The position numbers and the translations under genes are program-made. A stretch of DNA of 64,000 bases from a virus: IMG/VR virus record IMGVR_UViG_3300028833_000003; one strand, 5' to 3'. This document shows, piece by piece, positions 44,613-60,321 of this stretch (position 1 is the first letter of the stretch; each line of letters opens with the position of its first letter). The notes under the pieces were generated by a model. That model was not told the DNA's origin, did not search any database, and saw only the letters and a program-made list of their open reading frames with translations.

Positions 44613-44616
44613 ACGC

Positions 44617-47087: not shown

Positions 47088-47089
47088 CA

Positions 47090-47234: not shown

Positions 47235-47263
47235 TTGACAGGCACCCCATTTGGTGATATACT
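47235..47263 (+). promoter_or_regulatory. promoter P20, with no ORF behind it
   Basis: TTGACA, 17 nt, TGa+TATACT. The transcript would start with hairpin TGTTCCTGAGGGGAACA (47269-47285). About 70 nt before P21. Confidence 0.6.
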
Positions 47264-47331
47264 TATATTGTTCCTGAGGGGAACAGAAACGAAAAACCAA
47301 AAATGAAATTAAAAAAAATTTCAAAATGGTC

Positions 47332-47360
47332 TTGACAAACTGCTCACCCTCTGGTATAAT
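47332..47360 (+). promoter_or_regulatory. promoter P21
   Basis: TTGACA, 17 nt, TGg+TATAAT. Confidence 0.8.
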
Positions 47361-47411
47361 AAAAGAGAAGAAAGGGAAGGACACCCTACAAACCAGAAAG
47401 GAATTGATACC

Positions 47412-47777: not shown

Positions 47778-47841
47778 CAAACAGAGGGCAGGGGAAACCC
47801 TGCCCTCCTCCCGCCCCGGGCCGAGAACCTTAAAAAAACTA

Positions 47842-47870
47842 TTGACAAGCTGACAATCCTGTGCTATAAT
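47842..47870 (+). promoter_or_regulatory. promoter P22
   Basis: TTGACA, 17 nt, TGc+TATAAT. Confidence 0.8.
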
Positions 47871-47905
47871 CTTATTGAAATCAATACGAAAGAGATGATG
47901 ACAAA

Positions 47906-48481
47906 ATGACAAGAGCAGAAATTATCGCCAATAATAATTTTGAAATCGCCAAAGAAAAATTTGAAAATGCAAGTCTGAGATGGTCTAATTATTGGTGGGA
48001 AGCTTGCGAAAAAATTTATAATGCAAGTAAAGAATGGGCAGAAAAATATATTCTTGATCCAGTAAAGCGTATTATCAAAAGAATTAAAAGAGTTTTAGGT
48101 GGCATTGATTGGAATGGTTTTGAACCCTTCCCGCATGGAGTACAGCAATTTTATTTGATTAGATTATTAAATGCCGAAGGTGAAAATGTTTGGAATAAAA
48201 TCGGCACTACATCTCGAGCAACATACATTCGCATGAAAGACCATCTAAAAAACGCTGACTATCGTAAGCATGGAGTAAAAACTATTCAAATCATCGGCCT
48301 GTGGGATTGTAAAAATGTAGACGCTGAAATTATTGAAAATCGCGTGCGCAAATATTTACGCAAAGATTACGAACAGCAATTCGTCCCAAATGATCGTTTT
48401 GAAATAGAATTTGATATTCCCTCCCTGTCTAAAATGATAGAAGAGACAATTGCATTTGAAAATAGTTTTATGTATAATTAA
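47906..48481 (+). CDS. T5orf172/GIY-YIG-like domain protein (191 aa) in an AT-rich insert
   Basis: The C-terminal half reads FYLIRLL..GE.VWNKIGTTSR...RMKDHL...AE.IE..VRKYL...NDRFE, which fits the KIGxT...R...E...F pattern of T5orf172 (recollection). Markedly more AT-rich than its neighbours. Confidence 0.45.
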   Translation: MTRAEIIANNNFEIAKEKFENASLRWSNYWWEACEKIYNASKEWAEKYILDPVKRIIKRIKRVLGGIDWNGFEPFPHGVQQFYLIRLLNAEGENVWNKIGTTSRATYIRMKDHLKNADYRKHGVKTIQIIGLWDCKNVDAEIIENRVRKYLRKDYEQQFVPNDRFEIEFDIPSLSKMIEETIAFENSFMYN

Positions 48482-48489
48482 AAAAGGGA

Positions 48490-48518
48490 TTGACAAATCC
48501 CTTCCCATGTAGTATAAT
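48490..48518 (+). promoter_or_regulatory. promoter P23
   Basis: TTGACA, 17 nt, TATAAT. Confidence 0.75.
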
Positions 48519-48544
48519 AATGGTGTTGAAAGGAGCTGATAAAC

Positions 48545-48694
48545 ATGGCGAACAAGAGCAAAAGCAAAGTCAAGAATAGCTATGAAATCAACAAAGGCAT
48601 TCGGCGCGATTGGGGCAACATCAACCCTGTTACAAAAATCATACCAGACAAGCGCAACAAGAAACCTAAGCACAAAAAAAATTGGGAAGAGTGA
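48545..48694 (+). CDS. small basic protein (49 aa, below the ORF-track cutoff)
   Basis: ATG follows GAAAGGAG. K/R-rich. TGA stop. Confidence 0.6.
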   Translation: MANKSKSKVKNSYEINKGIRRDWGNINPVTKIIPDKRNKKPKHKKNWEE

Positions 48695-48704
48695 TACACA
48701 CCTA

Positions 48705-48733
48705 TTGACAAATTTAAAAAAATGTGATATAAT
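48705..48733 (+). promoter_or_regulatory. promoter P24
   Basis: TTGACA, 17 nt, TGa+TATAAT. Confidence 0.8.
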
Positions 48734-48765
48734 AATTATAGAAAATCAGAAAGGAAGTGTGCGTA

Positions 48766-49215
48766 ATGGCAAAGCAACAGCGGCAACCCACTCCACCTAC
48801 CAGAGAATGGATTGATGAATGGATTGACAAGTATTTGGAAGAGCATCCAAATGAAATCATTGAAGATTTCCAAGGGCTGGAAGATCAAGCTGACTATGAG
48901 TGGTGGTGCAAAGAGATTGACGCAGGACGCCCCACACCTTACGACTTGACCAAAGAGCAAGAAAAGGAAAGCCACAAAGCAAGAGTAACGCCTGGCGGAA
49001 GTGGCAAGCCCAAGGCAAACACTGAGCGCAAGCGCAAGCCCAATGACACAAAGAGAACCATTATCGGCTGGGTTCAAACCTTGTTTGAAGGTTTCGCTCT
49101 TAATGACAAAGTGGCTAATGTGATTGTCTCCAATGTTGAAAGGTCAATAGATTTTGAAATGGATGGCAAGCATTATACATTGAGCCTGACAGAGCATCGC
49201 CCACCTAAAAAGTGA
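48766..49215 (+). CDS. early protein, family B paralog 1 of 2 (149 aa)
   Basis: Shares EQAD(Y/C)EW..K..DAG....YDLTKEQEKE..KA...RKRKP and the C-terminal ...HRPPK with 53968..54396. Confidence 0.7.
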   Translation: MAKQQRQPTPPTREWIDEWIDKYLEEHPNEIIEDFQGLEDQADYEWWCKEIDAGRPTPYDLTKEQEKESHKARVTPGGSGKPKANTERKRKPNDTKRTIIGWVQTLFEGFALNDKVANVIVSNVERSIDFEMDGKHYTLSLTEHRPPKK

Positions 49216-49262
49216 GCGGTGCTTTTTTTCGGCCCGGGCCAAAAATTTTTTTCGCAAACCTA

Positions 49263-49291
49263 TTGACAAACCTCTTTCAGAGTGCTATAAT
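49263..49291 (+). promoter_or_regulatory. promoter P25 (sole promoter for the five genes 49328-50495)
   Basis: TTGACA, 17 nt, TGc+TATAAT. Leader hairpin GTTCCAAGGGAAC at 49298-49310. Confidence 0.8.
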
Positions 49292-49327
49292 AACATTGTT
49301 CCAAGGGAACAGAAAGGAAGTAAAATT

Positions 49328-49564
49328 ATGAAACCTATCAAAATTGCTGGCACTGTCTTTGATGCTGATGCACTTTCTATTGAAGCAATTGATGCGTTAA
49401 TTGAAAAACTTGAAGAAGCAAAATGCACACAACGCCGCAAAAAGGCAGAAGAATACGCAGAGAAAATTCATAACTTAATTATCGAAGCAAAACAGCAAGA
49501 TTTAAATGTGATGATTGACAATGAATGGATCCCTGATGATTTCAGAGTTGATGTTTATATCTGA
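49328..49564 (+). CDS. hypothetical early protein (78 aa)
   Basis: GAAAGGAAG RBS. Confidence 0.7.
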   Translation: MKPIKIAGTVFDADALSIEAIDALIEKLEEAKCTQRRKKAEEYAEKIHNLIIEAKQQDLNVMIDNEWIPDDFRVDVYI

Positions 49565-49599
49565 TAATACAAATAAGCAATAGAAAGGAAATAAAAGCA

Positions 49600-49815
49600 A
49601 TGTATAAAACAACTTGGATGATCACTGATGAAAGTGATGAAGGCACATTCCAGACAGAGCTGACCTTGTATCATTTTGGCAAGCGTCCCAAGTTCCCTCG
49701 CTGGTACATGGGAGAAAATCATTCTTATCAGATTGAAATGATTTGGAATTTCCATCTGATTGTTCGCCCTTCTATTTTCTTTAAATGCCTGACCCATCAA
49801 TACATTATCAGATGA
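49600..49815 (+). CDS. hypothetical early protein (71 aa)
   Basis: GAAAGGAAA RBS. Confidence 0.6.
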   Translation: MYKTTWMITDESDEGTFQTELTLYHFGKRPKFPRWYMGENHSYQIEMIWNFHLIVRPSIFFKCLTHQYIIR

Positions 49816-49830
49816 AAGGAAGTATCCACA

Positions 49831-50115
49831 ATGAGAGACGCGAAAAAAGGAACTTATAATGATAGTTATACTTATTGCCCTGTTAATGCGTATGGAGATT
49901 GTCCTTACTGTGACCAAAGTGATGTATGCCACATCGATGATCCTCTCAAAGATTGCGATGACTGGGGCGCGTTTTGGGAGAGCTGGGAAGACTGGCTAAA
50001 CGCTGATGATGCAAACCCTGATGCACCAGAGGATTTTGCGGAAGATGAAATCCGCTGGGCTGGTGATGTGTATGGCTATGAAGATACAATGGAGGACAAC
50101 AATGAATACTTATGA
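49831..50115 (+). CDS. very acidic, Trp-rich small protein with an N-terminal Cys cluster (94 aa)
   Basis: GAAAGGAAG RBS. CPxxxxxxCPYC...C...C, followed by a D/E/W-rich tail. Confidence 0.7.
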   Translation: MRDAKKGTYNDSYTYCPVNAYGDCPYCDQSDVCHIDDPLKDCDDWGAFWESWEDWLNADDANPDAPEDFAEDEIRWAGDVYGYEDTMEDNNEYL

Positions 50116-50275
50116 AATCATGATTAATTATCTTAACTATGTATTTCCAAACAGAAAATTTAGTAAAGAATATTTAGACATCCTTTACGCTATCTTTATA
50201 AAGGGATATGGCGAAGGCGAACTCGCGGGAGAAATTGAAGCAAATAAATATTGGAGCGAAAGGAAAGAAAAATAA
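50102..50275 (+). CDS. hypothetical early protein (57 aa)
   Basis: ATG lies 5 nt after GGAGGA and overlaps the upstream gene by 14 nt. Confidence 0.5.
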   Translation: MNTYEIMINYLNYVFPNRKFSKEYLDILYAIFIKGYGEGELAGEIEANKYWSERKEK

Positions 50276-50279
50276 ATAA

Positions 50280-50495
50280 ATGTATAATTATAATAATGAC
50301 CCATTTGCGAAGGGCACACAAAAATATCAACAAGAGATAGTCGCAAAAGCATTAAATGACCATTTGCTCAAATGTGTTAAAAATAGTTATTGGTGCGCTC
50401 ATTGCTCTCTAAATCATAGTGGCATCTGCTTTTTTGCAAAAGAATGTTTTGAGAATGATCGAAAATATTATAGAGAAGATGATGAGGAGGAATAA
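50280..50495 (+). CDS. Cys-rich small protein (71 aa)
   Basis: ORF with a weak AAGGAAAG RBS and an acidic C-terminus. Confidence 0.55.
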   Translation: MYNYNNDPFAKGTQKYQQEIVAKALNDHLLKCVKNSYWCAHCSLNHSGICFFAKECFENDRKYYREDDEEE

Positions 50496-50535
50496 ACTTC
50501 TCATTTTGCCCGGGCCAAAAAATTTCAAAAAAGTA

Positions 50536-50564
50536 TTGACAAGCTGAAACAAATGCTGTATAAT
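50536..50564 (+). promoter_or_regulatory. promoter P26
   Basis: TTGACA, 17 nt, TGt+ATAAT. The leader GTAATCAAGAGGAGGTAATCAA is nearly identical to that of P27. Confidence 0.8.
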
Positions 50565-50593
50565 AGCTATGTAATCAAGAGGAGGTAATCAAG

Positions 50594-50746
50594 ATGAAGA
50601 CTTTGAAGGTGCTGGCTGTGATTGGTTGCTTACTGACTATCTGGGGTCTGGTGTGGGGTATCTTCATCAAAGATTTCATTTGGGGTGCGTTTGTTGGTCT
50701 GGCGCTAATAATGCCTTATCTGGTTTGGGGAGATGAGGAAGAATGA
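50594..50746 (+). CDS. small membrane protein (50 aa)
   Basis: AGAGGAGG RBS. Two hydrophobic segments. TGA overlaps the next ATG (ATGA). Confidence 0.65.
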   Translation: MKTLKVLAVIGCLLTIWGLVWGIFIKDFIWGAFVGLALIMPYLVWGDEEE

Positions 50747-50901
50747 AAAGAAGTCTTTACAAGCGTTATGATGATTTAGCCTGCTGGGATTTGGACAAAG
50801 GATGTAGGCGCATCATTGACCAGTCTCGACCTGGTAGGCGTCGCCTGAAAAAGGTTCTTCGGCGTCAAGCGCGCAAGCGGTTAAATCAGCGGGAAGAATA
50901 A
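50743..50901 (+). CDS. small Arg/Lys-rich protein (52 aa)
   Basis: ATGA-coupled to the upstream gene. Confidence 0.5.
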   Translation: MKRSLYKRYDDLACWDLDKGCRRIIDQSRPGRRRLKKVLRRQARKRLNQREE

Positions 50902-50933
50902 CCGCCCGGGCGAAAAAAATTTCTAAAAAGCTA

Positions 50934-50962
50934 TTGACAACCTATCAAGATGGTGCTATAAT
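50934..50962 (+). promoter_or_regulatory. promoter P27
   Basis: TTGACA, 17 nt, TGc+TATAAT. Confidence 0.8.
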
Positions 50963-50991
50963 AAGCATGTAATCAAGAGGAGGTAATCAAA

Positions 50992-51507
50992 ATGACTAAG
51001 AACACTTACGAAGCTCGCGCCTATAAGTTCGCCACTTTCCTTGCTCGTCTGTTTGCTGGTTGCTCTTCTCTGGAAGATTTCATGTGGGCGCTGGACTATT
51101 ACAACGCTACGCACTCTCGCAAACTGCGCTGGGCGCATGGTGTTTCTCGCATTGCGATTATCCGCTCTGACTATGTTATCAAGTTTAACATGGTGCCTGA
51201 TGAAGAATGGGAAGATGGTCGCGCTGGCAACTGCGAAAGCGAAGAAGCGGTCTATGAGCGCGCCTGCGAAGATGGCTTTGAGTATCTGCTGGCTAAAACC
51301 ACTGTTTGCACCATCGAAGAACACACTTTCTCTATCATGCCTCGCATTAACCATGTGAATGATTGGACACGCGACTGGACAGAGTATTGCACTGATGAAG
51401 AATATAACTGGCTGGTGCAAAATGTGAATGACTTGCATGAAGGTAATGTGGGATACAGAAATCGAAAAGTGTGCGTAATCGACTACGCCTGGGACGCGGA
51501 AATGTAA
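50992..51507 (+). CDS. atypical protein-kinase-like early protein (171 aa)
   Basis: Contains DLHEGNVG....VCVIDYA, which looks like a DxHxGN catalytic loop plus a DFG-like IDY, and an upstream VIKF Lys. The TAA lies in a hairpin loop (51496-51512). Confidence 0.4.
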   Translation: MTKNTYEARAYKFATFLARLFAGCSSLEDFMWALDYYNATHSRKLRWAHGVSRIAIIRSDYVIKFNMVPDEEWEDGRAGNCESEEAVYERACEDGFEYLLAKTTVCTIEEHTFSIMPRINHVNDWTRDWTEYCTDEEYNWLVQNVNDLHEGNVGYRNRKVCVIDYAWDAEM

Positions 51508-51595
51508 TCCGCGCCCTTTTGCGTTCGACCGCGCGCTGCCGGATGTGGCGCGCGGCATTTGCCCCACAGCATACCCCACACAATTTTCGGCGCGA
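51508..51595. repeat. GC-rich intergenic element, copy E5
   Basis: ...CGACCGCGCGCTGCCGGATGTGGCGCGCGGCATTTGCCCCACAGCATACCCCACACAATTTT... Confidence 0.5.
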
Positions 51596-51637
51596 AAAAA
51601 AGTTCAAAAAAAACTTCAAAAAAATTCCTAAAACCTA

Positions 51638-51666
51638 TTGACAAGACCAGCGAAAGCGAGTATAAT
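51638..51666 (+). promoter_or_regulatory. promoter P28, with no credible ORF behind it
   Basis: TTGACA, 17 nt, TATAAT. The transcript would start AATAACTGTCAGGAGGG, the same 5' end as P16. About 100 nt before P29. Confidence 0.6.
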
Positions 51667-51768
51667 AATAACTGTCAGGAGGGCAAGAGAACATCCTCTC
51701 CCCTGATGGCACTGGCAAGGACGCTCTGACAAGATGCGGAAACTTCAAAAAAAAGTTTGAAAAACCCC

Positions 51769-51797
51769 TTGACAAAGCGCTGAAAGTGTGATACAAT
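51769..51797 (+). promoter_or_regulatory. promoter P29
   Basis: TTGACA, 17 nt, TGa+TACAAT. Confidence 0.75.
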
Positions 51798-51856
51798 AAG
51801 GATGTCAAATGAAGGGGAGCTGATAAACCCCACAAACAGAGAAAGAGGTAGATACC

Positions 51857-52240
51857 ATGATGAACACCAAGATGACTAACAAGAGCGCTCTGTCCTTTGT
51901 CCTGACCAACTGCGAAGTGCCTGCGGATGTCAAGGAGCGTCTGGAAGCGATGCTGGCTTCCCTTGAAAAGCGTTCTGAGAACGCCAAGGGCAAGGAGCGC
52001 AAGCTGTCTCCCAAGCAGGAGCAGGAGCGCAAGGAGCGTGAGGAGTTCCGCTCCAAGGTGTATGAGACTATGTGTGAGAACCTGAACTTCGAATACACCT
52101 GCAAGGGTCTGGCTGACCTGTTCGCTGTCTCTTCTCCCAAGATGGCGAACGCTCTGACCAAGCTGGTTGAAGCTGGCAAGGTTGAGCGTCTGGTTTCCAC
52201 CACCAACAAGTCCAAGGTGTGGTTCAAGGTGGTAGCGTAA
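51857..52240 (+). CDS. winged-helix-like early protein, paralog 3 of 4 (127 aa)
   Basis: Divergent copy (…LEKRSENAKGKERKLSPKQEQE…SSPKMANALTKL…). The TAA lies in the GTAA loop of the 9-bp hairpin 52228-52249. Confidence 0.7.
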   Translation: MMNTKMTNKSALSFVLTNCEVPADVKERLEAMLASLEKRSENAKGKERKLSPKQEQERKEREEFRSKVYETMCENLNFEYTCKGLADLFAVSSPKMANALTKLVEAGKVERLVSTTNKSKVWFKVVA

Positions 52241-52297
52241 GCTACCACCGCCCCACCTGGGGCGCGCCGGGGCCGAAAAAAAATTTTTAAAAACCTA

Positions 52298-52326
52298 TTG
52301 ACAAAGCTTTAAAACCGCTGTATAAT
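52298..52326 (+). promoter_or_regulatory. promoter P30
   Basis: TTGACA, 17 nt, TGt+ATAAT. Confidence 0.8.
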
Positions 52327-52372
52327 AAACATGTTCCAAGTGAGAACAAAAGAAAGAAAGGATTTGATAACA

Positions 52373-53029
52373 ATGGCTTCTAAGTATAATGACATTTTTG
52401 GTGATACTGAGACGCTGGGTCCGCTGGATAGCCCCATCATTTACAATGGTTACATGCATTGCAGGGAAACAGATGAAGAAGTAAATGCACTGATTAATGA
52501 ATATTTCTTCAACCTTGAAAAATTCGCCACAGCGTATTATGCAAACAAGCGTCCGCAATATTTGGACGATTTGTGGGACAGCAAAATCTTTGCTGAAAAT
52601 TTTTGGGACTTCCGCAAAAAAGTGCTTGCCATGCTCAACCCCAATAAAAAGAACAGATTTTTCGCTCACAATGCGAGATTTGATGTTATGGCATTGAATA
52701 ACACTTGCAGAGCGTTAAGCGATGGAAAAGTGAAATATTTCTTCCCCTATGAAGTTGAAGTTTGTGATACTCTCAAAATGGCGCGTCAAGTTGTCGCAAA
52801 AATGCCCACCTACATCAAATACTGTCAAGAGAATGGATACATGACCAAGCACAAGACGCCCAGGGTTCGCCTGACCGCTGAAATTCTTTACAGATTTATT
52901 ACAAAAGATGAAGAATTTAATGAAGAGCACAGAGGGAAAGAAGATGTTCTGATCGAAGAAAAAATTTATGACTACATCAAGAGACAGCATAAAAAGTGCA
53001 ATCCTGCGCTCTACGCCCGCAAGGCATGA
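52373..53029 (+). CDS. DnaQ-like DEDDh 3'-5' exonuclease (218 aa)
   Basis: ExoI GDTETLG, ExoII FFAHNARFDV and ExoIII EHRGKEDV (H-x4-D). ATG follows GAAAGGA. Confidence 0.55.
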   Translation: MASKYNDIFGDTETLGPLDSPIIYNGYMHCRETDEEVNALINEYFFNLEKFATAYYANKRPQYLDDLWDSKIFAENFWDFRKKVLAMLNPNKKNRFFAHNARFDVMALNNTCRALSDGKVKYFFPYEVEVCDTLKMARQVVAKMPTYIKYCQENGYMTKHKTPRVRLTAEILYRFITKDEEFNEEHRGKEDVLIEEKIYDYIKRQHKKCNPALYARKA

Positions 53030-53081
53030 GCGCAGGCGGCCCGGGCCGAAAATTGTATACAAAAAAAATTTCAAAAACCTA

Positions 53082-53110
53082 TTGACAAGAACCTGAATCA
53101 GCAGTATAAT
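53082..53110 (+). promoter_or_regulatory. promoter P31, with no credible ORF behind it
   Basis: TTGACA, 17 nt, TATAAT. The transcript would start with hairpin GTCCC/GGGAC. About 130 nt before P32. Confidence 0.6.
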
Positions 53111-53239
53111 ATAAGTGTCCCAAGGGGCAAGGGACAGTCAAGGCCAGGTTGCCGAAAGTCAACAGAGACAATACGCATGGACTACAGAAACATTTGGCCA
53201 TTAGCAAACACAATGTGCGAAAAAAGTTTGCGAAACCCC

Positions 53240-53268
53240 TTGACAAAGCCCACAACCTGTGGTATAAT
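53240..53268 (+). promoter_or_regulatory. promoter P32, with no credible ORF behind it
   Basis: TTGACA, 17 nt, TGg+TATAAT. About 120 nt before P33, with no ATG after the AAAGGAAAGGGG. Confidence 0.6.
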
Positions 53269-53391
53269 GCAAATGTAAGATAAAGGAAAGGGGAAAAATA
53301 AAAAGCCACCCCAATCCCAATGCGCAAAAATGCAAGGCTTTGCTTCCATGTGCTTCTTACAAAGTCAAGAAATAAAAAATAAAAAAAGTTC

Positions 53392-53420
53392 TTGACAAAC
53401 ACCACAAAGCATGATATAAT
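53392..53420 (+). promoter_or_regulatory. promoter P33
   Basis: TTGACA, 17 nt, TGa+TATAAT. Leader hairpin TGTTCCAAGAGAACA at 53426-53440. Confidence 0.8.
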
Positions 53421-53468
53421 AAAGATGTTCCAAGAGAACAAAAGGAAAAAAAGAAAGAGGTAATGAAA

Positions 53469-53858
53469 ATGACTAACATCACCAAGAACATGAAGTACGC
53501 TGACATCCTCTCCATCCTGCATGGCGAAAATCCTGCCTATGGTTGCTCCATCGAAACTCTGACCGCTTTCATCGAACATGAAATGGAACTGACCGCGAAA
53601 AAGAACGCGGCTCCCAAGAAGCCTTCCAAGGCTCAGGTGGAGAAGCAGGAGGAGAACAAGGTTCTCGCTCAGACGCTGTTTGAAGTCCTCGCGGCTCATG
53701 GTAAGGATGTAAGCGTCGCGGAAATCAAGAAACTGGATGATCGCTTTGTGGATCTGTCCTCTCCCAAAATCACTGCGCTGTTGAAAATCCTGATGGATGA
53801 AAACCGCATGGTCAAAGATGATAGCGGAAGGGTGGCAAGGTATCAGGTTCTCGCCTGA
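53469..53858 (+). CDS. winged-helix-like early protein, paralog 4 of 4 (129 aa)
   Basis: The second ATG lies 8 nt after AGAGG. Close paralog of 47412..47777. Confidence 0.75.
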   Translation: MTNITKNMKYADILSILHGENPAYGCSIETLTAFIEHEMELTAKKNAAPKKPSKAQVEKQEENKVLAQTLFEVLAAHGKDVSVAEIKKLDDRFVDLSSPKITALLKILMDENRMVKDDSGRVARYQVLA

Positions 53859-53910
53859 TACCTCCGCCCCTCGCGGGCCCGGGCGCGAAAAAAACATTTT
53901 CAAAAAGGTA

Positions 53911-53939
53911 TTGACAAGCTGATTGCAAGGTGCTATAAT
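53911..53939 (+). promoter_or_regulatory. promoter P34
   Basis: TTGACA, 17 nt, TGc+TATAAT. Confidence 0.8.
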
Positions 53940-53967
53940 AGAACCATCGAAAGGAGCTGATGACAGT

Positions 53968-54396
53968 ATGACGAAGGAACAGTACATTGAACAGTATCTC
54001 GATGAGTATGAGCGCAAGCACCCTGATGAACGAATTGATTATGAAAAGTTGCGTGAGCAGGCTGACTGTGAATGGTATGACAAGCAGGTAGATGCAGGCA
54101 AGAAGACTGAATACGATTTGACCAAGGAGCAAGAGAAGGAAGCCAAGAAGGCTCGACAGTATGCCAAGTCTGACAAGGAGCGCAAGAAGGTTGTGCGGGA
54201 GCGCAAGCCTGATGAGGACAAGCGCGAAATCATCGAAGTCATTGCACAGAATTTGAAGCGCGTTTGTACTGAGGATGACCAAATGGCAAAGGAAATCACT
54301 GTTGTAAATCCTGAGCGTGAAGTCACCTTTATTTTGCGGGGCGTTGAATACAGCGTCCAGGTTATCAAGCATAGACCGCCCAAGGCCCCTCAGTGA
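53968..54396 (+). CDS. early protein, family B paralog 2 of 2 (142 aa)
   Basis: ATG follows GAAAGGAG. The TGA lies within hairpin 54384-54402. Confidence 0.7.
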   Translation: MTKEQYIEQYLDEYERKHPDERIDYEKLREQADCEWYDKQVDAGKKTEYDLTKEQEKEAKKARQYAKSDKERKKVVRERKPDEDKREIIEVIAQNLKRVCTEDDQMAKEITVVNPEREVTFILRGVEYSVQVIKHRPPKAPQ

Positions 54397-54432
54397 GGGG
54401 CCGCCCGGGCGAAAAAAAATTTTTAAAAAGTA

Positions 54433-54461
54433 TTGACAAGTGCGCGAATGGATGCTATAAT
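54433..54461 (+). promoter_or_regulatory. promoter P35
   Basis: TTGACA, 17 nt, TGc+TATAAT. Leader hairpin at 54467-54484. Confidence 0.8.
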
Positions 54462-54500
54462 AATGGTGTTCCAAGAGAGAACAGAAAGGGCTGATAAAGA

Positions 54501-54731
54501 ATGTGTGATTGTGTAGCAAGTGCAATGTTAAATGATTACGAGCGACAAGCATGGACCTTTATCGAAAAGGGAACCCGCATCATTAAACTTTGCACAGAAT
54601 TAAGACAATTAAATTGTAACAAAGAAACTGTTGATTTTGCTTTGGTGTGGTTAGAACGCTCAAAGAAAACTCCTGAGGAAATTATTCAAATGGTCAAGCT
54701 CTATCACAAAGATTTGGAGGATGAAAAATGA
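54501..54731 (+). CDS. hypothetical early protein (76 aa)
   Basis: GAAAGGG RBS. ATGA overlap with the next gene. Confidence 0.7.
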   Translation: MCDCVASAMLNDYERQAWTFIEKGTRIIKLCTELRQLNCNKETVDFALVWLERSKKTPEEIIQMVKLYHKDLEDEK

Positions 54732-54937
54732 ATATTGTGGCGCGTGGGTATAGCATTTCACTGAACAAAGAGGAAGAAAATTTTACAAACAAGATAGTCG
54801 ATTTTGTTGATAAGCTGGAAAAGGAAATCTTTGAAGCTGGTGCATTACCTCCTGATGATTTGCAAACAGTTTTTGATGCTTTAAGAGATAACGCCTGCAA
54901 GCTCAGAGACAATGAATTTTATGATGAAGGAGAATAA
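54728..54937 (+). CDS. hypothetical early protein (69 aa)
   Basis: Translationally coupled (ATGA). A GGAGGA lies inside the upstream gene. Confidence 0.65.
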   Translation: MNIVARGYSISLNKEEENFTNKIVDFVDKLEKEIFEAGALPPDDLQTVFDALRDNACKLRDNEFYDEGE

Positions 54938-54945
54938 AAAAAGTA

Positions 54946-54974
54946 TTGACAATCCTTCCCACCTGTGTTATAAT
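54946..54974 (+). promoter_or_regulatory. promoter P36
   Basis: TTGACA, 17 nt, TGt+TATAAT. Leader hairpin at 54980-54996. Confidence 0.8.
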
Positions 54975-55016
54975 GAACATGTTCCAAGAGAGAACAAAAG
55001 AAAGGAAAGATAAACT

Positions 55017-55217
55017 ATGAATGAAGAGCGTTGCCCATATTGCCAATCTGAAAACTTCATCACTGATGATTATGAAGAAGATTATGCCGAACAGGATAAA
55101 ATCACCTTGTACTGGAAATGCAAATGCAACAACTGCGGTAAAGAATTTCACATCCAAGAATGGTACAAGTTACAGCGCAAAACCATCTCGACCGCGGAAC
55201 AGTGGGAGGAAGAATAA
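55017..55217 (+). CDS. zinc-ribbon small protein (66 aa)
   Basis: CPYC...CNNC. GAAAGGAAAG RBS. Confidence 0.7.
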   Translation: MNEERCPYCQSENFITDDYEEDYAEQDKITLYWKCKCNNCGKEFHIQEWYKLQRKTISTAEQWEEE

Positions 55218-55418
55218 ATGACTATCCAGCGTCGCATTGTATTAGATGATGAAGAACAGAACCTGATTACTCAGGTGGATGATTTGATTACTCAGGTTTA
55301 TAATGAATTAGATTCCTCTGATAAGGAGGGCCTCAAAAAGATAATGGCTTTAACAAATGCGTTAGCCGATTTCGCCTATGATTATGGGTCTGATGACTAT
55401 CGAAGTGGGTGCCTGTGA
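55218..55418 (+). CDS. hypothetical acidic early protein (66 aa)
   Basis: ATG directly follows the upstream TAA. A GGGAGGA lies in the upstream gene. Confidence 0.65.
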   Translation: MTIQRRIVLDDEEQNLITQVDDLITQVYNELDSSDKEGLKKIMALTNALADFAYDYGSDDYRSGCL

Positions 55419-55419
55419 C

Positions 55420-55510
55420 CGCAGGCGCCCGCTTGTTTTTCGCCCGGCCGAGCACCATACGTGCGCAGGCCGCAATTTTGTCAAGACTAACCCCACACAA
55501 TTTTTACGCA
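55420..55510. repeat. GC-rich intergenic element, copy E6
   Basis: ...CGCCCGGCCGAGCACCATACGTGCGCAGGCCGCAATTTTG...AACCCCACACAATTTTT. Confidence 0.5.
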
Positions 55511-55745
55511 AATTTTACGATTTTGTTACAATTCTGTTAATTTTCCCGAAACTTTTGTTACAAAAGTATTAAATTTTTGTTACAAATTATTAAATTTTTA
55601 TTAAATTTTTGTAATAATTGTAATAATTTTGTAATATTTTAAATTGTTACGAAAGTATTGCGAAATTGTTACAGATTTATTACGAAATTGTTACAAAACT
55701 TAACAAAATCGTAACATTTTTGTAACATTTGACCCACTTTTGTAA
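55505..55745. repeat. AT-rich TGTTAC/GTAACA box cluster 2 (homologous to cluster 1)
   Basis: TGTTAC at 55524, 55556, 55578, 55645, 55667 and 55689. GTAACA at 55711 and 55722. Shares TCCCGAAA.TTGTTAC.AAAGTATTAAATTTTT and AAATTGTTACGAAAGTATT with 44430-44462. Confidence 0.8.
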
Positions 55746-55756
55746 AAATTTGGCCC

Positions 55757-56113
55757 CATATGCACCTGGGCGGCGCGTTCACGCGCCATATGCGCCGCGC
55801 CCACGAATTAATGCTAATGCTACACTCATATGCGCCGAAAATGCGGCATCCGCGGGCACGCAGATAATTTCCCTTAATCCATATGAAATCGCCGCGTTTT
55901 TTCTTGCGCACGATTACAGAATCGCAAGAAGCACCAATGACCCTCATATGCTCTCATTTCCTGACCACGGGCGTAGCAAAATCTTCCCCTCTCTGAGCCC
56001 ATTTTAAGACAAAGGGAGCGACCCGACCGGGTTTTCCACTTATCTATTAATAACCCGACCGGTGCGCATACTTTTTTCCACACTACCGACCGGGTTTTCC
56101 ATAGTCCCATATG
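55757..56113. repeat. dispersed (C/T)CATATGC motif, six copies in non-coding DNA
   Basis: Copies near 55757, 55786, 55826, 55879, 55945 and 56107. Confidence 0.5.
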
Positions 56114-56296
56114 CCTAACCCGACCGCATTCTATATATTTATTCACTTTGCTCACAATTCTTTAATAAATATACACCTACCCGACCGGGTTATACACAAA
56201 AAAGCGGGCTATCTACAATACTGTAAATAACCCGTTCCACTTTATATATGTAATTTTACTCAGATAACTCAAAGTATTGTGAATAACCCGACCGGT
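56018..56296 (+). repeat. direct-repeat array of ACCCGACCGG
   Basis: Exact copies at 56021, 56053, 56179 and 56286. Variants at 56085 (ACCGACCGG), 56118 (ACCCGACCGC) and 56229 (AACCCGTTCC). All share one orientation and are often preceded by AATA/CTA. Confidence 0.8.
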
Positions 56297-56307
56297 CTGC
56301 ACATTAT

Positions 56308-56335
56308 TAAAAGGAGCCACATATGTGTGGCTCCT
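56308..56335 (-). terminator. terminator of the leftward 175-aa gene (hairpin usable on both strands)
   Basis: 10-bp stem AGGAGCCACA/TGTGGCTCCT with a 4-nt loop and T-runs on both sides. Confidence 0.7.
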
Positions 56336-56338
56336 CTT

Positions 56339-56866
56339 TTATATGCCCTTCTCTTTTAACTTCTCAGTCAGTGTCTTCTCTTTTACGTCCGTATCAGTCT
56401 TGGCCTTATTCGCCTCAATCACCTTTAACGCATCCAACATCTTCTGCCGCATCTCTGGTGTGAGCGTTCGATCTTTCTTTGTACCAGACCATGCTGGCAT
56501 TGGCATCGCTTGCCAAGATTGCATATGTGTAGGCGAGAATGTAGTCGCAGGTGCAGTTGTATCTTGTGCTTTTAATGACCGAATAGCAGTATCAATCCGC
56601 GCATCATTGTACATATCTTTCCAATTCCGGTGCTCAGCTAGTGCTAGCCAGTAAGCCAGAAAGGATCTAAGCGTGGTTTCTTCCCCACCCCGACCATTTT
56701 TAATAAGCTCTATAATTACATCTGCATAGTCCTTCATCTGCTAATCAGCTTGTAGTTTCTGTGCCGCATTACGCAGAGAAGTATTCATCATATTAAGGAA
56801 GTCATCTTCCTTAGGATACTGCTTCATTAGTTCATATAGTGTTTGCTAAAACATTGTATTATCCAT
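56339..56866 (-). CDS. hypothetical protein (175 aa)
   Basis: ATG 56864-56866 lies 10 nt after AAGGAG. In-frame TAGs at 56846 and 56741. Stop is TAA 56339-56341. Confidence 0.6.
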
Positions 56867-56945
56867 ATTGTCATATCTCCTTATTACGAATTACGGTAAC
56901 GATTAAATTCAAGGGGTCGCATATAGCAGTGTGCAGCGATCGCAC

Positions 56946-57029
56946 GACACATCCACAATTTTTAAGGACACATCCACAATTTTTAGATATGTATCCACAA
57001 TTCTTAAAGATACATCCATAACATGTTCA
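56946..57029 (+). repeat. four direct repeats with an exact 21-bp period and a DnaA-box-like core
   Basis: ATCCACAA at 56951, 56972 and 56993, and ATCCATAA at 57014. Copy 3 (GTATCCACA) matches TTATCCACA at 8 of 9 positions. Confidence 0.75.
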
Positions 57030-57041
57030 ATAGCTAACTGC

Positions 57042-57488
57042 TTAAATATGTATATCTGTATCTACTTCTTTAACAATCTTCGGCTTCCCCGTCGGTATCC
57101 AATGTGGATCAAAATGCCAAAAGTCCTCATTCCTCAACCTAGCATATTCCAATAGCACATCATCCCACTCTTTGGACCCAACCCACTGCCCAAGATAATT
57201 CAACTCATCCAAATAACTATGAACCAATATCCAATTCTTACTATACTTTATATGATCCAGCCCACACATTTGCACACGAGCCAACTGTTCAATAACACTT
57301 TGATCCCAACCAATATAATATCCAAAACCACTGAAATCACTATCAGGAACTTCATGATTACCAAGCACATTCCATATATAGTCTCTTTCAGTAATATACT
57401 CCTCTTTCTACGTGCCGTGCAATAGCGCCGCAATCAAAATTCCCAGAAATGTAAAAACAAAAGCCAACAGTACATAACTATACCACAT
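57042..57488 (-). CDS. membrane-anchored hypothetical protein (148 aa)
   Basis: ATG 57486-57488 follows GGGAGG. In-frame TAG at 57408. N-terminal TM helix. Stop is TAA 57042-57044. Confidence 0.55.
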
Positions 57489-57505
57489 CGCGCAATTAGC
57501 CTCCC

Positions 57506-57880
57506 TTAGTCTAAATTAACATATACACCATCATAAGTGCCGATTTTGTTAAATCTTCCATCATACATGCTATTATCATTCAATACAAAATATTGCTGCG
57601 CTCGTTCATCACTCGCATCAACTATTTTGCGCAAAGTCTCACTAATCTCAATTGTATCTTGCGCTTTCATCCAAGGTATCAAATATATAGGCAGCTTTTT
57701 ATAAGTCCCAATGTAAAATATCGACCCACTATAACGAAACTCAGTTGGTACTTCCTTATTACTCTCATAGTACAAATTCGGTGTGTCTTCGACAGTCTCA
57801 AACTCAATCTTTTCCTTCAATATATATAAATACTTACGCTTATTTTCAGTTGTAACAGCGTAAGTTAATTCCATCATCAT
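57506..57880 (-). CDS. hypothetical protein (124 aa)
   Basis: Uninterrupted ORF downstream of the minus-strand promoter at 57917-57945. Confidence 0.65.
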   Translation of the reverse strand: MMMELTYAVTTENKRKYLYILKEKIEFETVEDTPNLYYESNKEVPTEFRYSGSIFYIGTYKKLPIYLIPWMKAQDTIEISETLRKIVDASDERAQQYFVLNDNSMYDGRFNKIGTYDGVYVNLD

Positions 57881-57916
57881 ACTTAAATCACTAGCCTTTT
57901 TCTATCTTTCATATAT

Positions 57917-57945
57917 ATTATACCAAAAATTTTTAAAAAAATCAA
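57917..57945 (-). promoter_or_regulatory. minus-strand promoter (TTGATT-17-TGgTATAAT)
   Basis: rc -35 at 57940-57945 and rc -10 at 57917-57922. The block AAAATTTTTGGTATAATATAT is shared with 59234-59262. Confidence 0.65.
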
Positions 57946-58053
57946 TTTTTTGAAATCATTTTTTGAAATGCTCCTTGGGCTTACGTGCCAATTTTTGAAA
58001 TGAAATTTTGAAACCCCTACTCGGCCCCATTTTGAAATCATTTTTTGAAATGT
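57944..58053 (+). repeat. seven TTTGAAA(T/C) boxes
   Basis: TTTTTTGAAATCATTTTTTGAAATG occurs twice (about 57945 and 58029), with further copies near 57992 and 58005. Confidence 0.7.
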
Positions 58054-58063
58054 ATCCACCCCA

Positions 58064-58098
58064 GGGTATAATTCATCACAAAGTGATGAATTATACCC
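58064..58098. repeat. perfect 16-bp inverted repeat with a 3-nt loop
   Basis: GGGTATAATTCATCAC-AAA-GTGATGAATTATACCC, preceded by GTATCCACC. Confidence 0.85.
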
Positions 58099-58132
58099 CT
58101 TATTTAGATTTTTTATTTCGCTATTATTTAGA

Positions 58133-58199
58133 TATTGGTAGATGTTTTACCCAAGTATGGTAGATTTTTTACCCATAAGTATGGTAGATTTTTTACCCA
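58133..58199 (+). repeat. three tandem ~22-bp iterons (GTATGGTAGATTTTTTACCCA)
   Basis: Units at 58133-58153, 58154-58175 and 58176-58199, immediately downstream of the Rep-like gene. Confidence 0.8.
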
Positions 58200-58246
58200 A
58201 TCGGCATTTTAGTCTACATATAATGCTCAGACCAATTTAACAAACG

Positions 58247-58798
58247 ATAACGCGGTGCTTTTCCATCGAAAAAATTTTCAAATGAAATCAAACCATTATT
58301 CTATAACACATCAAGAGCATTATGAATGGCCTATCTAGCCCGCGGATTACCCCCTAATTTTACACCCAAATGTTCTGCTATTTCTTCCTATGTAAATACA
58401 TAACCAGGTTTATATTTCCAACGTTGCCCTAAATAAATATATGTTTTAATAACTGCTTCTTTAACTGTATCAGTTAAAAACTAAACAGTAGCCAAAGGTA
58501 ATAATAAATAAATTTCTTCTACATTCGGCATAATATATCTATTATCTTCTTCAATTAAATAACCAATTTCCAACAAATAATTTAAATGAACACGCAACGT
58601 CTTTGCACTTTTTATTCCAATTTTTTTACATATTGCAGCCTATGTCGGTAAATCACTCTTCAAAACAATAGTGACCCCATCTTCTGGATACGACATAGAC
58701 TATAAATAAGCATATAATTCAGCATCAATGCGTGGGTCTTTCAAGAACGTAATCTCCTTTGTTAAATTAGTGTCAGCTGGAAAGCGTTTTTGAACCAT
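58247..58798 (-). CDS. winged-helix DNA-binding protein, candidate replication initiator/organizer (183 aa)
   Basis: ATG 58796-58798 lies 8 nt after GAAGGAGGTGA. Six in-frame TAGs. Stop is TAA 58247-58249. Two HTH-like segments. Iterons lie on both sides. Confidence 0.45.
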
Positions 58799-58852
58799 AC
58801 TTGTTTTCACCTCCTTCATAATCTACTGAAAGAGAAATAAGTAAAAATAACT

Positions 58853-58905
58853 TTTTTTACCCAAGTATGGTAGATATTTTTCCCAAAAATTTTACCCATA
58901 TATAA
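58853..58905 (+). repeat. iteron copies upstream of the Rep-like gene
   Basis: TTTTTTACCCAAGTATGGTAGATATTTTTCCCAAAAATTTTACCCA, the same unit as 58133-58199. Confidence 0.7.
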
Positions 58906-58925: not shown

Positions 58926-59156
58926 TCACTCCGCATCAGTATCGTTTGCAATAGTTACATATTTAGGCGCGCGAGGTGGTCTCTCAGCCAAAATTGTATT
59001 CAAATCCTTTTCAAACTTAGGATTGTTGGCAAACACCCAGCAAAGAAACTCCGGCTTACTAGGATTTGGCGTAGTAGCAACCGGTAAATTACCCATTTCA
59101 ATCAACTTAGTCGCGATGCGGCGTGTGTAAATAATCTTATTAACATTCTCAGCCAT
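58926..59156 (-). CDS. small hypothetical protein (76 aa)
   Basis: ATG 59154-59156 lies 7 nt after GGAGGA. TGA stop. Faint resemblance to DUF5659-type small phage proteins (recollection only). Confidence 0.55.
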   Translation of the reverse strand: MAENVNKIIYTRRIATKLIEMGNLPVATTPNPSKPEFLCWVFANNPKFEKDLNTILAERPPRAPKYVTIANDTDAE

Positions 59157-59233
59157 TTTAAATTCCTCCATTATGCGTCTGGGCGCACTTCGTTAATGTA
59201 TTTGAAAGTTTTTTTGTCTCACTTTCTACATAT

Positions 59234-59262
59234 ATTATACCAAAAATTTTTCCGTCCGTCAA
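59234..59262 (-). promoter_or_regulatory. minus-strand promoter (TTGACG-17-TGgTATAAT)
   Basis: rc -35 at 59257-59262 and rc -10 at 59234-59239. Back-to-back with the plus-strand promoter at 59264. Confidence 0.65.
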
Positions 59263-59263
59263 G

Positions 59264-59292
59264 TTGATTTTTTCAAAAAAATTTGTTATAAT
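59264..59292 (+). promoter_or_regulatory. plus-strand promoter (TTGATT-17-TGtTATAAT)
   Basis: -35 at 59264-59269 and -10 at 59287-59292. Confidence 0.6.
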
Positions 59293-59325
59293 ATACATAT
59301 ACGATGAAAGAAGGAGGAATACCCC

Positions 59326-59499
59326 GTGATTAAAACAGAACGCATTGATAATTTAATTCACACATATAGTGATTAGGGCTTTATGATTAAGGCGCCAGAT
59401 GGCTCAATAGTAAGTGAAGCCTTTGACCTGCGGCCGCAGACATATACCGAGACAAACGTCAAAGCGCCCGCACACGAAGAAATTGACGAAGAAGCATAA
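59326..59499 (+). CDS. tentative 57-codon ORF that needs read-through of TAG 59374-59376
   Basis: GTG lies 7 nt after GAAGGAGGA. It would be 16 codons if TAG stops and 57 if TAG is sense (TAA at 59497). Confidence 0.3.
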
Positions 59500-59502
59500 A
59501 AC

Positions 59503-59531
59503 TTGATTTTTTAATAAAAATATTATATAAT
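59503..59531 (+). promoter_or_regulatory. class-2 promoter with conserved leader, copy A
   Basis: TTGATT, 17 nt, TATAAT. The block AAAATATTATATAATATATATATAAGATAAAGAAAGG is conserved with 62104-62141. Confidence 0.65.
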
Positions 59532-59565
59532 ATATATATAAGATAAAGAAAGGGTTGGTGGCAAA

Positions 59566-60321
59566 ATGGTAGCAAAGTCTTATCAGAACAAAGAAATCGT
59601 CGGTGAGCCCTACACTGTGATGCTTGACAAACGTGGCGCCGTCCAGTATGTAAAGATTAAGACGGGCCGCACCAATCCGGATGGCTCTCCCGTTATCAAA
59701 GAAGTGCGCTGGTATTCCGAAGAGGAATACTATAAAATGTATCCCCAGGAGATGCCGCAAATCGTCTTTGATGCTAAGAAGGGCTTTGGCTTCGATAAAG
59801 GTTATATTTGGATTTTCGGTGGCGATACTTATAGCGAACTGGAATGGTTCCGCGCATGCCCTGTAACTCGTTACGCTCGCCATTTCGGTTGGTATGTTGT
59901 AAGTACCGATGAGCTGCCCAACGATATTCCCGAAGGCGTTGAACCCATTAAGCTGATGTGGGAACAGGTGTCGGATGGCAACGACAACATCCTCGATGAA
60001 GATAAAATCAAGTCGATTGTGCGTGACATCCTTCATCCTATTGATACGCGCAGCACCTATCAGGGCGAAATTGGCGGTAAGATTACTGTAACGGCCAAAT
60101 GCACGATGTGCCGTGAGGTTTATGGACCGTATGGTATTTCTGTGCTGCACAATTTCGTCGATGCTAATGGTAATGTCTATGTCTGGTTCACTCAAAAGAG
60201 CCTTGAATCTGGCAAGACCTACACTTTCAGCGCGAAAGTAAAAGACCATAAGGAATATCGTAACCAGCAGCAGACTATTATCTACTATCTGCGTAATATT
60301 AAGGAGGTAGAAAATGCCTAA
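59566..60321 (+). CDS. 251-aa protein with an OB-fold-like C-terminal third (possible DNA-binding)
   Basis: RBS-like GGTGG precedes the ATG. The plus-strand product has ordinary composition. The C-terminal pattern G.KITVTAK....V....G..VYVWFT....GKTYTFSAKVKDH resembles OB folds (weak). Confidence 0.6.
   Translation: MVAKSYQNKEIVGEPYTVMLDKRGAVQYVKIKTGRTNPDGSPVIKEVRWYSEEEYYKMYPQEMPQIVFDAKKGFGFDKGYIWIFGGDTYSELEWFRACPVTRYARHFGWYVVSTDELPNDIPEGVEPIKLMWEQVSDGNDNILDEDKIKSIVRDILHPIDTRSTYQGEIGGKITVTAKCTMCREVYGPYGISVLHNFVDANGNVYVWFTQKSLESGKTYTFSAKVKDHKEYRNQQQTIIYYLRNIKEVENA

Follow-up and report, generated by a model that had tools for sequence, protein, structure and literature searches.

Replication origins of the Rep_3 type, such as mini-F ori2/RepE, P1 oriR/RepA, pSC101 and pPS10, carry contiguous 17-22-bp iterons, repeated directly in one orientation with helical phasing; the same element also contains DnaA boxes and a readily melting AT-rich stretch, and a protein with two winged helices is encoded close by. 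A comparable arrangement was found in a 64,000-nucleotide stretch of viral DNA (IMG/VR record IMGVR_UViG_3300028833_000003; one strand, 5' to 3'; hereafter the window), in which the decamer ACCCGACCGG is repeated at 56018-56296 within a non-coding gap at 55420-56338. The array is real, directional, phased and under purifying selection. It very likely functions at the DNA level as a protein-binding array; comparison with described systems suggests, more tentatively, that the complex formed on it could be a replication origin.

As at the Rep_3 origins, the repeats are direct, in one orientation and helically phased, DnaA boxes and an AT-rich meltable stretch share the gap, and the product of a nearby two-winged-helix gene has RepE as its best structural matches. 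Unlike the Rep_3 iterons, the repeats are 10-12-bp quasi-palindromes ~30-61 bp apart, with five to six interleaved DnaA(-like) boxes, one to each repeat. A distance of 270 bp separates the AT-rich region from the array, and the candidate initiator, 1.9 kb away behind four genes, is without Rep_3 signatures or promoter half-iterons and is full of recoded TAG codons.

Direct-repeat centromeres (R1 parC/ParR, pBtoxis tubC/TubR, the pSM19035 omega heptads) also consist of 7-10 short repeats of lineage-variable specificity, which are read by small dimeric DNA-binding proteins; unlike the repeats described here, theirs are contiguous, with periods of 7-12 bp, and lie beside a partition NTPase gene, none of which was found in the ~24 kb around the gap. 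The ori iterons and cosB R sites of lambda-type phages are likewise phage cis elements with three to four protein sites by an AT-rich or bent segment, but lambda ori lies inside the O gene and cosB adjoins the terminase genes, and neither holds here. In phage T5, the iss region (Repeat Region 3) comprises ~1.2 kb of untranslated DNA with direct repeats, palindromes and 8 DnaA boxes, and is more conserved than the neighbouring open reading frames (ORFs; Davison 2020, bioRxiv 10.1101/866236). The gap resembles it in being ~1 kb of untranslated DNA behind small early genes at 8-9% of the genome, in its dense direct repeats, palindromes and helically phased DnaA boxes, and in a conservation above that of neighbouring ORFs. 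Unlike the phage described here, T5 infects E. coli and has 10-kb terminal repeats, and its DnaA boxes occur in pairs within large inverted repeats; those of the present phage are unidirectional and form pairs with a phage-specific motif, and its host is probably a member of the Clostridia.

The components of the locus are of known kinds (direct-repeat sites, DnaA boxes, a RepE-like fold). Their arrangement, with one-to-one pairing of boxes and DnaA sites, a tripartite cis zone and TAG-recoded uncultured carriers, could not be matched to any described element that was found. To our knowledge, metagenomes are the sole source of large TAG-recoded phages of gut and rumen, and no replication origin, packaging site or regulatory circuit of theirs has been described.

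The decamer array and its DnaA boxes

Four exact and three near copies of the decamer, all in a single orientation, had been reported in an initial annotation of the window and were confirmed. DnaA boxes were identified with the Schaper-Messer consensus TTWTNCACA. The sites are listed below with their state in two close relatives, L173 and L175, which were located through homologues of a neighbouring 175-amino-acid (aa) gene.

56021-56030, + strand: box 1, ACCCGACCGG, exact; extends to ACCCG-AC-CGGGT; unchanged in L173, kept in L175
56032-56040, + strand: DnaA-like site TTTTCCACT, one mismatch to TTWTNCACA; reads TTATCCACT in L175
56053-56062, + strand: box 2, ACCCGACCGG, exact; AATA prefix, and a GGTGC suffix as in the CCGATCGGTGC boxes of relatives
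56074-56082, + strand: consensus DnaA box TTTTCCACA
56085-56093, + strand: box 3, ACCGACCGG (A-CCGACCGG), near copy with a one-base deletion (one C missing)
56095-56103, + strand: DnaA-like site TTTTCCATA, one mismatch
56118-56127, + strand: box 4, ACCCGACCGC, near copy with one mismatch; absent from L175
56139-56147, + strand: DnaA-like site TTATTCACT, one mismatch; conserved in L175
56179-56188, + strand: box 5, ACCCGACCGG, exact, with the full right half CGGGTTAT; absent from L175
56190-56198, + strand: consensus DnaA box TTATACACA
56229-56233, + strand: box 6, half copy (AATAACCCG, then TTCCAC); right arm of the terminator hairpin T2 (see below)
56278-56286, - strand: consensus DnaA box TTATTCACA; abuts box 7
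56286-56295, + strand: box 7, ACCCGACCGG, exact; identical in L173 and L175

All seven copies lie on the + strand within 56021-56295, and none was found elsewhere in the 64 kb. Allowing up to one mismatch, five matches were obtained (0.35 expected by chance in 64 kb), a number reached by none of 100 dinucleotide shuffles; the degenerate core CCGRYCGG also gave five matches, all inside the array (shuffles: mean 0.89, maximum 4). The boxes are spaced, start to start, by 32, 32, 33, 61, 50 and 57 bp, so that the range of about 30-100 bp given initially is reduced to ~30-61 bp; the 32-33 bp between the first four boxes correspond to roughly three helical turns. The AATA and CTA prefixes described earlier are correct, as are the two GTTTTCCA suffixes (56031 and 56094), which are part of DnaA-box-like sites.

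The decamer forms the core of a quasi-palindrome, ATAACCCG-AC-CGGGTTAT, and the box covers ~12-20 bp, (ATA)ACCCG-AC-CGGG(TTAT). Individual copies retain either the left or the right half, or both, and the polarity of the central AC is constant in all of them. A CRISPR-like array was rejected, since the repeats are 10 bp long, the spacers irregular and cas genes absent.

The DnaA boxes cluster significantly. TTWTNCACA has seven matches in the 64 kb, and three of these fall inside the 279-bp array, where ~0.03 would be expected (Poisson P ~5e-6); three further one-mismatch DnaA-like boxes are found in the same 279 bp. On the same strand, a DnaA(-like) box comes after each of boxes 1-5, at offsets of 9, 19, 9, 19 and 9 bp downstream of the CCGACCG core. 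In L173 and L175 these sites are kept or have shifted toward the consensus, as beside box 1 in L175.

Conservation in relatives

Comparison of the decamer among relatives had been proposed initially, and both boxes and spacing were found to be under selection in L173 and L175. The zone is 94% identical in L173, with all seven boxes intact; of 15 substitutions in the 279-bp array, none affects the 64 positions of the boxes (P = 0.02). Next to the gap, the four adjoining early genes have been replaced in L173 (55% identity), whereas the gap itself is 94% identical. In L175, where the 175-aa gene has a homologue of 55% identity, the gap is alignable and five of the seven boxes are kept, boxes 4 and 5 being deleted. 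The boxes are 85-89% identical versus 63% for the spacers (Fisher P = 0.002), and the spacer between boxes 2 and 3 is 23% identical yet of equal length, so that the ~32-bp box spacing is preserved. The box forms of L175 (CCGGTCGGGT, CCGATCGG and a perfect ACCCGATCGGGT) are a mixture of the CCGGTCGG and CCGATCGG types, which ties the decamer of the window to the family-wide CCGATCGG box.

Wider relatives were examined as loci around graded homologues of the winged-helix protein (L153, L155, L157, L158, L159, L176, L177 and L180; 74-44% identity). Synteny of the zone with the winged-helix gene extends across the phage family, which comprises more than 150 genomes of 130-190 kb: in all eight loci, an 81-aa gene and the gene for the winged-helix protein come first, then some variable genes, a terminator, the non-coding zone and the 3' end of the early block. 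CATATG pairs beside a GC hairpin with compensatory changes (GGGCCG..CGGCCC), TTTCGGGA motifs and GTTAC repeats are common to these zones, and the CATATG pair and GC hairpin are the sole elements kept in every relative, L180 included. The decamer ACCCGACCGG itself was absent from the L153-L180 loci. Boxes of the form CCGATCGG, with the same core, occur in 1-5 copies in most wider relatives, nearly all within the homologous gap, down to 50% winged-helix identity. From these sequence comparisons we conclude that the decamer array is a lineage-specific, multiplied version of an ancestral box of the zone.

Most relatives carry an extra gene inside the gap, coding for 156-175 aa and rich in coiled coil, which the lineage of the window has lost. 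It has two to three tandem strong sigma-A-type promoters and a conserved CGGGGGAAG leader, and was located as follows.

L153, 11871-12398: extra gap gene
L157, 11689-12198: extra gap gene
L158, 3728-4198: extra gap gene
L159, 4365-4865: extra gap gene
L176, 11756-12232: extra gap gene

Around this inserted gene and by the CATATG core, L153, L157 and L159 have five to seven copies of a perfect 12-bp palindrome, ACTGTATACAGT, which is absent from the window and looks like a second lineage-specific operator-like box.

Other searches gave no relatives of the gap: blastn against deposited phages returned no match, motif scans of IMG/VR returned chance matches only, in GC-rich phages, scans of IMG/VR proteins with three flanking proteins found no relatives, and exact-block scans of Joint Genome Institute (JGI) metagenomes and GTDB genomes found nothing.

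Anatomy of the gap

The gap of ~0.9 kb lies between convergent, terminator-bounded transcription units and is the sole long non-coding cis element in the 64 kb. Its features, and a related array elsewhere in the window, are listed below.

55403-55434, + strand: intrinsic-terminator-like hairpin closing the early block (14-bp stem, then a T run); the last early gene ends at 55418
55490-55750, no strand assigned: AT-rich part, ~20 TTGTTAC/TTATTA-type units with an orientation flip at ~55700
55751-56017, no strand assigned: GC-rich part, five CATATG copies, mostly CATATGCGCC, and the hairpin GGCGCG-TTCA-CGCGCC
56205-56234, - strand: second terminator hairpin (T2) for leftward transcription; its arms are box half-sites, CGGGCTAT...ATAACCCG, everted
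56312-56335, no strand assigned: bidirectional terminator hairpin ending the leftward block; conserved in L173 and L175
44360-44605, no strand assigned: second array, of GTAACA, 11-bp phased (lag 11, z = 6.6), behind a GC hairpin

The view of 55420-56338 as a 900-bp gene desert between an early block and a replication-like block holds for its non-coding part: terminator-like hairpins stand at both ends, and internal ORFs are interrupted by indels in L175. Three ~92-aa ORFs inside the gap were rejected as genes on this ground, each being hit by 19-23-nt indels (frameshifts) in that relative. No conserved promoter was found in the gap, the sole sigma-70-like site (56157-56128, - strand) not being kept in L175, and an Rfam search of the gap yielded sub-threshold microRNA/small-RNA noise and nothing significant. 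A role at the DNA level is favoured because the gap is without a conserved promoter, ORF or Rfam match. The pairing of T2 is perfect solely as minus-strand RNA (G-U pairs); its stem is kept in L175 and its loop differs.

The AT-rich part has an 11-bp period (lag 11, z = 8.5), with TGTTAC every 22 bp, and 55549-55648 has the lowest duplex stability of any 100 bp in the window. A short conserved AT stretch also lies between boxes 4 and 5. Of 30 CATATG sites in the window, seven are within 55757-56320 and an eighth is at 56522; just one occurs from 29.8 to 55.7 kb. In L175, blocks 55757-55805 and 55942-55982 show ~90% conservation. The latter, 41 nt long (CATATGCTCTCATTTCCTGACCACGGGCGTAGCAAAATC), is 90% identical amid diverged surroundings and has no assignable promoter, ORF or known motif. 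The pairing with DnaA boxes, the quasi-palindromy, the 11-bp phased GTTAC repeats, the CATATGCGCC/GC-hairpin core and the TAG recoding had not been remarked on in the initial annotation.

The module at 44310-44640 consists of a GC hairpin (GGCCGGTCGCGCGCGGGCGTGCGCGACCGG), the GTAACA array and then a strong early promoter, TTGACA-17-TATAAT (44609-44640), and is paralogous to the left part of the gap. In the relative L159, GTTAC boxes overlap three early promoters. Since the 44.4-kb array and the L159 copies sit at early promoters, this class of repeat is also promoter-associated.

Assembly breaks recur at the gap: four independent Logan contigs, whose strains are 94.5-97.9% identical, stop at 55500, 55544, 55559 and 55588, and one JGI contig stops at 56344, so that five independent contigs end at the edges of the gap. 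The clustering of contig ends was rejected as evidence for physical termini, as the breaks are scattered in repeats shared with the 44.4-kb array; the paralogous module is the likely cause of the breaks.

The candidate box-binding protein and neighbouring genes

The gap always trails an operon of the 81-aa and winged-helix genes. The leftward genes, read with TAG as a sense codon, are listed below.

56339-56866, - strand: 175 aa, orphan gene (ORFan)
57042-57488, - strand: 148 aa, ORFan
57506-57880, - strand: 124 aa, ORFan
57883-58059, - strand: 58 aa, ORFan
58193-58864, - strand: tandem winged-helix protein, 223 aa, 8 in-frame TAG codons; 1.9 kb from the array
58926-59171, - strand: 81-aa protein, heading the block of the winged-helix gene; 60-89% conserved family-wide

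The winged-helix protein has >150 homologues, many on 100-190-kb contigs. Its structural model shows two winged-helix domains (predicted local distance difference test score, pLDDT, 92.4), and its top five PDB matches are RepE of mini-F over the full length (template-modelling score 0.44-0.46, E 1e-3 to 6e-3); other tandem winged-helix proteins rank after RepE. Matches among the viral models of BFVD include 'Replication initiator protein' and 'COG5527'. At the sequence level, matches are weak (HTH_36, LexA-type winged helix-turn-helix, and PHROGs for a DnaD-like loader and replication initiation). The 81-aa protein has no informative structural neighbour.

The description of the leftward genes as a replication-like block did not survive: with TAG as sense, they are lineage-specific ORFans and one RepE-like tandem winged-helix gene, and no replication module is recognisable. 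The ORFans at 56339-58059 have no homologue in the loci of wider relatives and no family matches; the 175-aa protein has only two database homologues. Among the neighbours of the gap, which are lineage-specific ORFans on both sides (175, 148, 124, 58, 76, 69 and 66 aa), no DNA-binding family match was found, apart from one weak zinc ribbon. An ORF of 281 aa on the - strand (59404-60249) was rejected as the shadow of a real 251-aa gene on the + strand (59566-60321; PHROG matches, homologues in relatives), which places the divergent promoter region at 59171-59566. No CCGRYCGG half-iterons were found at the promoter region of the candidate initiator (59171-59320), nor anywhere outside the array in the window.

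The sole plasmid homologue of the winged-helix protein is on pRGI00117 (L178, 5963-6692; 26% identity, E = 2e-7). Three TTGGAAATTTCAACCAAC direct repeats with 23-bp spacing start within 30 bp behind that gene.

Source of the window and genetic code

The window corresponds to bases 15494-79493, reverse strand, of the 168,974-bp metagenomic contig ENA ERZ27257202 k141_292341 (100% identity). Its source is a large tailed phage, with the following structural and packaging genes.

30-38 kb, - strand: TerL-like, portal and capsid genes
32726-34063: prohead protease, ~40% identical to proteases of 120-170-kb Bacillota siphophages
36052-37788: TerL-like gene, with a 389-aa gene upstream, both at the head of the late operon

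Relatives were binned with Lachnospiraceae and Eubacteriales metagenome-assembled genomes, a weak hint that the host is probably a member of the Clostridia.

TAG is a sense codon in this phage. Under code 11 the - strand of 1-25000 is fragmented, whereas reading TAG as sense gives three ORFs spanning 23.9 kb, the largest of 13.7 kb; they encode 2324, 1089 and 4552 aa and contain 38, 27 and 103 in-frame TAGs, respectively. This reading applies to 1-40042 (- strand) and to 56339-58864, and database translations of these genes give TAG as Gln. The early block (40146-55418; 15.3 kb, 9% of 169 kb) contains ~50 small + strand genes with many TTGACA..TATAAT promoters and zero in-frame TAG, and starts beside the late/terminase operon. 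A split between early and late codes is known for recoded gut phages, and the block pattern here agrees with it (bioRxiv 10.1101/2021.08.26.457843). The 64-kb window is without tRNA genes, so a suppressor tRNA must lie outside it.

The late (recoded) operon from 40042 and the early block from 40146 stand back-to-back, with two sigma-A-type promoters ~100 bp apart. Paralogous families occur in the early block (47412-47777, 51857-52240 and 53463-53858; also 48757-49215 and 53923-54396), with MTNKMTYSDAL..-type N-termini and e157-like proteins; several copies are present per locus in the relatives too. The penultimate early ORF (55017-55217) encodes a small zinc-ribbon protein with a weak match to Lar (restriction alleviation; E = 0.002).

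A possible iteron-like origin and its alternatives

Among the roles offered initially, that of a direction-specific protein-binding array is upheld by the selection on boxes and spacing, and an iteron array fits best because direct repeats roughly three turns apart, interleaved DnaA boxes, an AT-rich phased region and a RepE-like gene 1.9 kb away occur together; the packaging (pac) role is disfavoured and the parS role has no support in the ~24 kb around the gap, as set out below. In the arrangement proposed, the decamers would be the cores of binding boxes, quasi-palindromic with a fixed asymmetric centre and set head-to-tail, on which a phage DNA-binding protein and host DnaA would co-occupy the array. 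By assembling together, they would form a higher-order complex serving as a replication origin, as at the origins of Rep-type plasmids and P1, which combine iterons and DnaA boxes. The candidate phage binder is the conserved RepE-like tandem winged-helix protein, with a small dimeric protein as the alternative, and the AT-rich phased segment may be a bent or unwinding region. We infer the identity of the box-binding protein, the binding of DnaA and the firing of replication by the complex.

A series of observations weighs against an origin read by this protein. The cumulative GC-skew minimum of the window lies at ~40 kb (40042-40146) and the gap is a small local maximum; GC skew is unusable for locating an origin here, since it follows gene orientation. 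Rather than adjoining the array, the AT-rich region is 270 bp away, and the least stable 100 bp are at least 370 bp from box 1. DnaA boxes beyond chance are confined to the sub-lineage of the window, none having been found in the wider relatives, and on this comparison we conclude that they are an addition of that sub-lineage. The most distant locus, L180 (44% identity), is without CCGATCGG and has tandem GTAGAC/GTCTAC repeats in the place of the first box (GTCTACGTCTATATAGACGTAGACGTAGACGTAGAC, 6470-6505). No replication enzyme genes were recognised near the gap, and no neighbouring protein gave a sequence match to Rep_3 (PF01051/PF21205) or another initiator family in a search that did detect the true Rep_3 protein of pRGI00117. 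That plasmid also holds, besides the winged-helix homologue, its canonical Rep_3 gene (1335-2099) with three 22-bp iterons (1186-1251). With eight in-frame TAG codons, the winged-helix protein can be produced only under active suppression, which is odd for an initiator. Both of its recognition helices are nearly identical in relatives with CCGATCGG rather than CCGACCGG boxes, without co-variation; because the helices are constant while the boxes vary, down to the GTAGAC repeats of L180, the match of protein and box stays a candidate. Such constancy would be compatible with reading of the CCG-RY-CGG core, and equally with reading of the shared GTTAC or CATATG motifs. An 8-12-bp quasi-palindrome is also an atypical target for a tandem winged-helix monomer, which the 11/22-bp GTTAC repeats would suit better.

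Were the array instead an operator or roadblock, a phage regulator bound to the boxes would silence or insulate the convergent junction or control promoters within the gap, and the array would play no part in replication. The gap gene of relatives, with its tandem sigma-A-type promoters, has CCGATCGG boxes just up- or downstream of these, and related GTTAC arrays stand at early promoters; two boxes flank the tandem terminators, the T2 stem is made of box half-sites, and the box is quasi-palindromic like many operators. A 'late-coded' winged-helix protein with eight TAG codons would also suit a shut-off factor. We nevertheless regard this explanation as unlikely: the gap of the window has lost the gene and is without a conserved promoter, yet its boxes have expanded from 1-5 to seven, and strict unidirectionality, ~32-bp phasing and DnaA pairing are left unexplained by simple repression.

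An element like T5 iss would be a cis site marking the inner end of the first-entering early DNA, where genome entry would pause or be anchored, perhaps via membrane-bound DnaA. This is improbable. In its favour, the gap closes a standard-code early block that begins beside the late/terminase operon and makes up 9% of 169 kb, as against 7.9% for the first-step transfer of T5. The untranslated, repeat-rich gap with its DnaA boxes and its conservation resembles iss in anatomy, and in L173 it was retained while the adjoining early genes were replaced. The 169-kb contig, however, has no visible terminal repeat, none is revealed by the loci of relatives, and the gap is 23 kb from a contig end; the T5 mechanism is itself a proposal, and the wider family is without DnaA boxes. 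In a more specific form, very improbable, the gap would be the Firmicute-phage counterpart of the T5 stop/anchor, and its array of phage boxes and DnaA boxes would hold the incoming genome after the 15-kb standard-code early block, the TAG-recoded rest being exposed only once the early genes and the code switch are in place. If true, T5-like anchoring would link stop-codon recoding to staged DNA entry.

A centromere-like partition site (parC/tubC/omega-type direct repeats) of a plasmid-like prophage state is likewise improbable. Unidirectional short repeats in a non-coding gap resemble such sites, and a centromere-binding role would fit the pRGI00117 homologue, which lies beside a separate Rep_3 replicon with three direct repeats. 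Neither the ~24 kb around the gap (ORFs of 40-64 kb) nor pRGI00117 gave a ParA, ParM, TubZ or ParB match, which also leaves the parS role without support there; the 10-12-bp boxes, ~30-61 bp apart, are neither 16-bp palindromic parS sites nor contiguous 7-12-bp repeats, and the window showed neither integrase nor lysogeny genes.

Quite improbable, too, is a packaging signal, that is, pac/cos repeats for the small terminase subunit or the boundary of a terminal repeat. The zone is a complex repeat region in which the family-invariant CATATG and GC-hairpin core could be a cleavage site, and five independent assemblies break at the gap edges. A pac site is disfavoured because the terminase genes (the TerL-like and 389-aa genes) are 18-20 kb away (16-20 kb with the late-operon start at 40042 included); moreover, contigs break at four positions within 90 bp inside the AT-rich repeats, as explained by k-mers shared with the 44.4-kb GTAACA array, the boxes vary among lineages, and no TerS was identified for comparison. 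A structured non-coding RNA is extremely unlikely and was rejected: both strands fold far better than shuffled sequence (z = -5.8 and -5.0), but this excess stability arises because the quasi-palindromic boxes pair with one another, no conserved promoter or significant Rfam match was found, and boxes 4 and 5 are lost from L175 with no compensating changes.

Significance

The zone has a grammar of its own, in which an invariant CATATG/GC-hairpin core and 11-bp phased GTTAC repeats are accompanied by lineage-variable boxes that have here been multiplied and paired with DnaA boxes. If the array is an origin, it would provide a handle for marker-frequency analysis of uncultured phages, point to a dependence on host DnaA and offer a minimal replicon for genetic tools. 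If it is not, the pairing of boxes with DnaA boxes would still predict a specific co-assembly of phage and host proteins.

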